The position numbers and the translations under genes were made by a program. From Escherichia coli (lineage in GTDB: Bacteria > Pseudomonadota > Gammaproteobacteria > Enterobacterales > Enterobacteriaceae), in the NCBI RefSeq assembly GCF_036507355.1, contig NZ_AP027877.1: 64,000 nt of DNA. The stretch is one strand, 5' to 3'. The notes beneath the pieces were generated by a model. That model had not been told where the DNA came from, did no database searches, and worked only from the letters and a program-made list of their open reading frames with translations. How positions within the stretch are numbered: the stretch's first letter is position 1; every line of letters starts with the position of its first letter. Below are positions 53,961-54,162 of this stretch, in pieces.

Positions 53961-54034
53961 AGAACGCTCCTTCCATTTTCTCTATTCATAGTATTAATTT
54001 GATCTGTCTAAAATAAAGTATTGGCAGAATTGCT

Positions 54035-54052
54035 CTATCAAAAAACGCTCAT
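54035..54052 (-). promoter_or_regulatory. box 3 of the repeated 18-nt motif (ATGAGCGTTTTTTGATAG on the minus strand), upstream of eilA
   Basis: The reverse complement of ctatcaaaaaacgctcat. The 3' end of the box is 75 nt from the eilA ATG. An AATACT hexamer lies 12 nt downstream. Confidence 0.7.
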
Positions 54053-54094
54053 TTTGTGAGATTGTGATGAAGAAATGAATGAAAGCTGATGCTT

Positions 54095-54131
54095 AATAAT
54101 ATGAAACGCTGGTCCCATTTTACGGGACCAG
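54095..54131 (-). terminator. hairpin terminator after eipD
   Basis: Stem CTGGTCCC / GGGACCAG with a 7-nt loop. On the minus-strand RNA the tail is CGUUUCAUAUUAUU. Confidence 0.6.
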
Positions 54132-54162
54132 ATAGTGGACGATAATTGTGGGTGTTACTTAA

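Follow-up and report, generated by a model that had tools for sequence, protein, structure and literature searches.

The second type III secretion system of Escherichia coli (ETT2) is poorly understood, and EilA is one of its regulators. The window, by which we mean the whole 64,000-nt stretch of DNA analysed here, is a segment of the E. coli chromosome reaching from ilvN/uhpA to selC. It contains the eip island, whose minus-strand genes follow one another in the order eicA, a 60-amino-acid (aa) open reading frame (ORF), eipB, eipC, eipD and eilA. The last two genes are co-oriented and separated by a gap of 202 nt (53961-54162), which holds one copy of a short element, here called the box. We describe the box and its relatives and propose that it may place eilA under an activator of the kind represented by InvF in Salmonella and MxiE in Shigella.

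The eip island and the eipD-eilA gap

The eip island was already known, and EilA has been reported to control the eip genes, eaeX (also called air), eivF and eivA (PMC4210603). The island is reported to go together with an intact ETT2. In Salmonella, invF is activated by EilA and by its ETT2 paralogue YgeH, both of which can replace HilA (PMC4210603; PMC7058095). EilA matches NCBIfam model NF009037 over its full length (950.9 bits, cut-off 589), which places it in the HilA/EilA family. EicA has SicA as its best NCBIfam match (150.8 bits, under the equivalog cut-off of 184) and passes TIGR02552 LcrH_SycD (113 bits, cut-off 104.8). Among the ETT2 proteins, EivF is best matched by InvF and YgeG, like EicA, by SicA. 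The RefSeq annotation of eipD was taken from a 98.5%-identical locus. The region upstream of eilA is present in 730 of 5426 complete E. coli genomes.

A preliminary description of this locus had put a box 75 nt upstream of eilA and the same element ahead of eicA-eipBCD and of two orphan genes. Indeed, the 20-nt pattern AAAATGAGCGnnTTTTGATA matches exactly at 54055-54036 (-), which leaves 75 nt to the eilA ATG. It matches exactly again at 59300-59281 (-), ahead of eicA, and at 30311-30330 (+), ahead of orphan gene B, and recurs with three mismatches at 28715 (+), ahead of orphan gene A, and at 63264 (+). These five matches in the window compare with 0.08 expected from dinucleotide-preserving shuffles, none of which (0 of 100) gave five, and the copies are not due to chance. 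Four of the five lie within 0-1 base of the 17-nt core ATGAGCGNTTTTTGATA (also given as ATGAGCGnTTTTTGATA). Since likeness between the copies ends within ~23 nt, the box is a short site, and the possibility that it is a piece of a larger mobile repeat was rejected.

The region is AT-rich, H-NS binds the regulatory region of ygeH, and others have pointed out that the MxiE box resembles the H-NS consensus (PMC9769918). An AT-rich coincidence or an H-NS nucleation site served by no dedicated activator is nevertheless a highly improbable account of the box, given how rarely the shuffles produce it, the conserved GAGCG half, which is not AT-rich, and a position that is kept across genera.

A predicted -10 hexamer follows the box core (Table 1). 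It would set the start of eilA transcription near 54003 (+/-3), with a 5' untranslated region of ~43 nt and the box spanning about -52 to -35. On its minus strand, the gap gave no sigma-70 promoter in a consensus scan, and a search of Rfam found no family matching it. A 500-bp fragment from upstream of eilA showed promoter activity in ST69 strains whose ETT2 is intact; the sites its authors predicted in it are those of PurR, Fnr, ArgR and RpoS, and this box is not listed (PMC7058095). The TCAT-rich block at 54063-54084 may be a partial HilA-type site.

The gap also holds a hairpin close behind eipD. The preliminary description had eilA co-oriented with eipD and 202 nt downstream of it, after a hairpin at 54109-54131 with a weak U-tail, and all of these coordinates hold. 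The hairpin has a z-score of -4.4 in a 46-nt context and of -1.9 in an 81-nt context. Its tail in E. coli, CGUUUCAUAU, is a weak, interrupted U-tract that a terminator consensus scan accepts (5 T in 8 bases). E. albertii conserves the hairpin stems and has a better U-tail (AUUUUUAUUU), and a variant eip island of E. coli carries an unrelated hairpin without a U-tract at the same place. A stable hairpin (-15 to -16 kcal/mol) stands behind eipD in all three eip lineages. We conclude from its sequence that it is probably an intrinsic terminator or a 3'-end stabiliser of the eip transcript; partial read-through into eilA is possible in E. coli.

Table 1. Positions of the genes, promoter elements and motif copies discussed in the text (window coordinates unless a locus is named).
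Feature	Position	Strand	Description
Box ahead of orphan gene A	28718-28735	+	ATG at 28948; gene 28948-30231 (+), 427 aa
Box ahead of orphan gene B	30314-30331	+	ATG at 30523; gene 30523-31971 (+), 482 aa
TCATCA-N8-TCATG motif, TCATCATTTGCTAATCATG	43338-43356	+	67 nt before the air/eaeX/iatC start codon; candidate HilA-type (EilA/YgeH) box
air/eaeX/iatC	43424-52213	+	Large adhesin gene, convergent with eilA
eilA	52263-53960	-	HilA/EilA-family regulator, 565 aa
Shine-Dalgarno sequence of eilA, GGAAGGAG	53967-53974	-
Predicted -10 hexamer TATTTT of eilA	54010-54015	-	19 nt after the box core
Box 3 core, ATGAGCGTTTTTTGATAG	54052-54035	-	18 nt, 74-75 nt 5' of the eilA ATG; A-tract ahead at 54053-54055
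TCAT-rich block, TTTCATTCATTTCTTCATCACA	54063-54084	-	Identical to E. albertii at 16/22 positions; TCATCA half-site within it, 12 nt 5' of the box core
Hairpin	54131-54109	-	32 nt after the eipD stop; 10 pairs, -16.1 kcal/mol
eipD	54163-55512	-	IpaD/SipD-family needle-tip gene, last of the eicA-eipBCD operon; ORF and RefSeq annotation
eicA	58722-59219	-	SicA/IpgC-class translocator chaperone; presumed co-activator
eicA box, ATGAGCGAATTTTGATAT	59280-59297	-	Ahead of eicA-eipBCD; TGAAGT 20 nt downstream
Fifth box copy, ATGAGCTATTTTTGATAG	63267-63284	+	Between setC and selC; also in strain 88-3493 (L001 23276-23292)
TCATCA-N8-TCATG motif outside the window (eprH, eivF, Yersinia prgH-like gene)	L002 41418-41436; L003 6571-6589; L087 17550-17568	-

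Conservation and likeness of the box

Between E. coli and E. albertii the gap as a whole is 61.9% identical. The A-tract and box agree at 20 of 21 positions, the surroundings of the -10 hexamer at 8/10 and the ribosome-binding site (Shine-Dalgarno sequence to ATG) at 16/17, and the rest of the gap is 32-54% identical. Four E. coli alleles with 94.6-100% mutual identity have 17 variable sites, none of them in 54009-54057. From this pattern, the eilA copy of the box looks functional.

Further lineages were searched with a matrix built from the E. coli copies only, a second matrix that included the cross-species sites being circular for those loci. The box lies 74-95 nt ahead of EilA-like genes in three of them: E. 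albertii (protein 76% identical, box 28.4 bits), Yersinia enterocolitica (54%, 26.5 bits) and an E. fergusonii-type island (51%, 21.6 bits). Hits of at least 15 bits number only 16 in 1.65 Mb of loci. In these lineages, a sicA-like gene and an orphan ORF are also preceded by the box. The EilA-like gene of Yersinia and of the E. fergusonii-type island sits inside an island resembling pathogenicity island 1 of Salmonella (SPI-1) and is followed by an iagB-like gene, a LuxR-type gene and orgAB-prgKJIH. It keeps the box and is not preceded by a sipD homologue, so the association of the box with the EilA-like gene is independent of the eipD-eilA adjacency. The preliminary description had taken the box and the adjacency to the translocon operon together as suggesting feedback wiring. 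Both are real, but the link does not depend on adjacency, as Yersinia, the E. fergusonii-type island and the variant island show.

This distribution bears on an alternative in which most eilA transcription is read-through that starts at the eicA promoter and passes a leaky hairpin, the box in the gap being vestigial or minor. Such read-through would be favoured by the co-orientation of eipD and eilA and by the weak U-tract in E. coli (CGUUUCAUAUUAUU), and the eilA-like gene of the variant island, where the hairpin lacks a U-tract and no box is found, may need read-through or another promoter. However, no part of the gap is better conserved than the box and -10 region, the Yersinia and E. fergusonii-type islands keep the box without a translocon operon upstream, E. 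albertii keeps it despite a good terminator tail, and the 500-bp reporter is active without the eicA promoter (PMC7058095). We therefore regard this alternative as unlikely.

ETT2 is not part of the window, and in strain 042 its sole good copy of the box precedes ygeF-ygeG, in which ygeG is a SicA-like chaperone gene and ygeH comes next. No box within four mismatches was found ahead of eivF or eprH in that strain. The genes with the box ahead of them are eicA, ygeF-ygeG, the orphan genes and, in the Yersinia and E. fergusonii-type islands, the sicA-like genes; they do not include eivF or eprH. Such a target set would be expected of an InvF-type factor and not of a HilA-type one. E. albertii and the variant E. 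coli island have the identical box ahead of eicA.

The sequence of the box points to the same class. Between spaS and sicA of Salmonella arizonae and S. diarizonae lies TTGGGCGTTTTTTGAATG, which is identical to the eilA box at 14/18 positions and has TTTAAT 20 nt on. The InvF site of sicA, sopB and sopE is described as lying over the -35 region and being sized for one monomer (PMC7595419, summarising Darwin and Miller). The Shigella MxiE box, GTATCGTTTTTTTAnAG, is also found overlapping the -35 region (PMC9769918), and the eilA box equals its consensus at 12 of 16 specified positions. The eilA box shares with this class an asymmetric build of 17-18 bp, its CG, its T-run and the A-AG at its 3' end. 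In Serratia, Dryocola and two species of Chromobacterium, the promoters of chaperone genes have ATGAGCGATTmCTGAAkG, and at those of Dryocola and Chromobacterium the 5' half of the eilA box, ATGAGCG, recurs identically.

Promoter geometry was compared in 16 copies from six lineages, aligned on the box. Anchoring on the box was preferred to a MAFFT alignment of the eilA upstream regions of five lineages, in which the box fell out of register, as it stands at different distances from the ATG. In nearly all 16 copies the core is followed, 19-21 nt on, by a -10-like hexamer, the positions being read from sequence. A hexamer of the form T[AG]nnnT is found 18-21 nt after the core in 12/16 aligned copies, and its offset is 19 in all four eilA-class promoters. 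The hexamers are TGAAGT at eicA, TGCAAT and TGAAAT at the orphan genes, GATATT at ygeF and TATTTT at eilA. On homology, geometry and distribution, we identify the box as the putative ETT2/eip version of an InvF/MxiE-type activator site. A full-text literature search found nothing relevant describing the box sequence or an EivF/InvF box.

The two orphan genes sit between ilvN and uhpA and are present in 444 of 5426 complete E. coli genomes. Ser, Thr, Asn and Pro are abundant in the N-termini of their products. Searching the PDB sequences with both returned nothing informative, and Pfam and NCBIfam gave no informative match for either of them, for YgeF or for the 60-aa ORF. We consider orphan genes A and B candidate secreted effectors of ETT2.

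Several further observations concern the other copies and their surroundings. The fifth copy has no plus-strand gene downstream, faces a rhuM fragment and tRNA-Sec, and is probably the relic promoter of a lost island gene. Three nt 5' of the A-tract of the eicA box, a GC-rich hairpin (GCCCATCCGTTGGGC, 59304-59318) reads on the plus strand as a terminator with the tail TTCGTTTTCT; its role may be to mark the boundary of the island or to shield the eicA promoter from yicS. The 60-aa ORF between eicA and eipB (58530-58712, -) is a RefSeq hypothetical, and its place in the E. fergusonii-type island is taken by an ORF of 81 aa (L093 10504-10749). The ETT2 layout mirrors that of the eip island, with the box, ygeF, the chaperone gene ygeG and the HilA-like ygeH co-oriented (L002 32725-35747), and the 334-nt ygeG-ygeH gap has no box. 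The ygeF promoter region is complete in 1093 E. coli genomes and present in a deleted form in ~2500. In K-12-like degenerate ETT2 loci (L044/L045, ~8380), this region is missing together with its box (compare L002 32725-32742), and the deletion lies between two AAGGTGATA direct repeats. A 3.4-kb contig from a Hadza gut metagenome (L004, CAKVEW010000080.1), in a bin labelled 'uncultured Clostridium sp.', encodes an EilA that is 100% identical over 540 matched residues and shows the identical box and the promoter sequence downstream of it. We take it, with near certainty, for an E. coli contig put in the wrong bin.

The variant eip island (L085/L086 4600-11700) occupies a different E. coli chromosomal site, adjoining an inverse-autotransporter gene and insertion sequence remnants. 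Its EilA-like protein is 57% identical, and the eipD-eilA adjacency is kept.

In eight species of Chromobacterium, a conserved CTGrACrTTTTTTGCAAG (ATGGGCGTTTTTTGCAAG in one) lies 212-313 nt before cilA, with TACCAT at offset 21. This cilA box shares 14/18 positions with the Salmonella sicA-upstream 18-mer and only 11-12/18 with the cicA promoter box of the same species. We treat it as a lead towards an InvF-type-like site (L005-L018). An oppositely oriented copy of the cilA-type box lies nearby in the three Chromobacterium loci checked (L006, L018, L025); in C. subtsugae it (L006 9570-9587, -) faces a unit that includes a TcdA/TcdB-like glycosyltransferase gene.

A second motif and a predicted circuit

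A different motif, TCATCA-N8-TCATG, is found at the ETT2 promoters of eprH and eivF, at the air promoter and at a prgH-like gene of a Yersinia island. There are two copies in the window against 0.07 expected, and only three in 93 loci, all of them ahead of eprH, eivF or a prgH-like gene. As it stands at homologues of two classic HilA promoters and at an EilA-dependent gene, we read it as a candidate binding motif of EilA and YgeH; the comparison with HilA sites rests on our own reading of the Salmonella prgH promoter. We found no description of the motif in the searchable literature. The full motif is absent ahead of eilA and eicA, and the eilA upstream region holds a TCATCA half-site only. 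TCATCA also occurs 4 nt before the box of the E. fergusonii-type island.

The preliminary description had offered autoregulation of EilA through the box as one of two circuits. EilA itself would then bind the box, autoregulate and directly activate eicA-eipBCD and the orphan genes, in keeping with the reported EilA dependence of all box-bearing eip-island genes and with the TCATCA half-site that adjoins the box. We consider this improbable. The box resembles the sites of AraC-type activators (InvF, MxiE) and not the direct repeat expected of an OmpR-type winged-helix protein. In strain 042 it is missing from eivF and eprH, the homologues of invF and prgH, and the EilA-dependent eivF and air promoters are without it. 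Because eivF, eprH and air carry the other motif and eilA only its half-site, EilA is unlikely to act through the box. Furthermore, an intact ygeF box region occurs in 1093 E. coli genomes, against 730 with the region upstream of eilA.

The second suggestion, that a chaperone-dependent activator feeds back onto eilA, fits the predicted homology to InvF and MxiE sites, the shared -10 spacing and the box being the best-conserved upstream stretch in four lineages. From the observed homology, promoter geometry, conservation and distribution of the two motifs we infer a circuit in which the binding proteins, the sign of regulation, the start site and the gating by secretion are predictions. EilA, YgeH or both would activate eivF, eprH and air via TCATCA-N8-TCATG. 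EivF, an InvF-like AraC-family protein of ETT2, would combine with free chaperone, either EicA of this island or YgeG of ETT2, into an activator that switches on eicA-eipBCD, ygeF-ygeG, the orphan genes and eilA via the box. At eilA, the box and a weak -10 hexamer 19 nt downstream would form an activator-dependent promoter. It is reasonably likely, in our judgement, that EivF with EicA or YgeG activates eilA through the box and so closes a positive loop, running from EilA/YgeH to eivF and through EivF and its chaperone back to eilA. By analogy with MxiE-IpgC, the loop would be gated by the availability of the chaperone and hence by secretion activity. YgeH is a plausible primer, since ygeH, unlike eilA, is expressed in lysogeny broth (PMC4210603), and EilA would be the amplifier. 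The hairpin would end or attenuate the eip transcript, so that eilA is mainly a separate unit, and the weak U-tract of E. coli would let some read-through pass.

The sign of the feedback could also be the reverse, with EivF and the chaperone repressing eilA once secretion runs. MxiE-IpgC has been reported to exert such negative feedback on virB in Shigella, where no canonical MxiE box was found. The eilA box, by contrast, is a full match with the orientation and -10 spacing seen at activated promoters, and repression is therefore quite improbable.

Several points weigh against a positive loop through EivF. In the sole published test of EivF with YgeG, the pair failed to activate the MxiE-box promoters icaR and icaT (PMC9241512), an outcome that agrees with the four positions at which the MxiE box and the eilA box differ. 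EivF, EicA and YgeG all score under the equivalog cut-offs for InvF and SicA, and the Salmonella InvF site used in the comparison is a positional identification upstream of sicA together with a secondary summary of its location. The presence of eivF in this genome is presumed, as the window does not contain ETT2, whose eivF and ygeF-ygeG promoters were analysed in strain 042. The TATTTT of eilA is unlike the TGAAGT, TGCAAT and TGAAAT of other copies. Finally, the variant island has the box ahead of its eicA-like gene and none ahead of its eilA-like gene, so feedback would be dispensable or replaced there.

Relation to known systems

The InvF-SicA promoters of Salmonella have a similar box in the same position relative to the predicted -10 hexamer. 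Their targets, like those predicted here, are a chaperone-translocon operon and genes outside the island, and a HilA-type regulator activates the invF homologue. The reported InvF targets in Salmonella are sicA, sopB, sopE2 and STM1239, and hilA is not among them (PMC5013294). In Salmonella, hilA is driven by HilD, HilC and RtsA and is convergent to the sip operon, whereas here the HilA-like gene itself bears the box. The preliminary description had not recognised this topology from SPI-1, and in two Salmonella loci hilA is indeed convergent with the sip operon and without a good box. No convincing box precedes hilA in the S. arizonae and S. diarizonae loci; a weak match in S. arizonae (7.9 bits, 206 nt before hilA) was rejected, as it is absent in S. 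diarizonae.

Autoregulation of hilA in Salmonella is a further case of a HilA-family regulator gene under feedback, which is said to be negative there. The eilA box differs in that it is not of the HilA class; it is the candidate TCATCA-N8-TCATG that precedes the homologues of the classic HilA-dependent prgH and invF promoters.

MxiE-IpgC of Shigella acts through an asymmetric box of 17-18 bp with CG followed by a T-run and A-AG, which overlaps the -35 region as the eilA box is predicted to do. The activator needs a translocator chaperone, and its targets are secreted proteins, some of them chromosomal. The eilA box departs from it at 4/16 positions (TGAG for GTAT and, just ahead of the final A, G for T). 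A HilA homologue is absent from Shigella, where the feedback on virB is negative and works with no canonical box.

BsaN-BicA of Burkholderia pseudomallei is also a chaperone-dependent AraC-type activator and controls other regulator genes as well. Its downstream regulators are not HilA-type. Positive and negative effects of BsaN-BicA are mentioned in a Shigella preprint.

New here is a HilA-like regulator gene as a putative InvF-type target, a wiring variant within a known regulatory kind, together with an ETT2 cis-element that had not been described before. Promoter sequences point to InvF-type drive of a HilA-family gene in Escherichia, Yersinia and the E. fergusonii-type island and, as a lead, probably also for cilA in Chromobacterium. 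Tentatively, and short of calling it probable, we suggest that an InvF-type promoter driving a HilA-family gene is old and widespread in SPI-1-like systems, and that control by HilD, HilC and RtsA is derived in Salmonella.

ETT2 and the eip island are widespread and intact in bloodstream lineages such as ST69. To our knowledge, no conditions have been found under which ETT2 visibly secretes. The InvF-type box and the candidate HilA-type motif lay out a whole predicted circuit. It would form a self-reinforcing switch that may need priming, and it marks the two uncharacterised genes lying between ilvN and uhpA as candidates for secreted effectors. If InvF-type drive is in fact old and widespread in SPI-1-like systems, the 'master regulators' of the HilA family would be secretion-gated amplifiers in a bistable loop, primed by YgeH or another input, and this could explain the silence of ETT2 in bulk laboratory culture. 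The circuit also suggests that the textbook cascade of Salmonella may not be the general wiring of this family of secretion systems.

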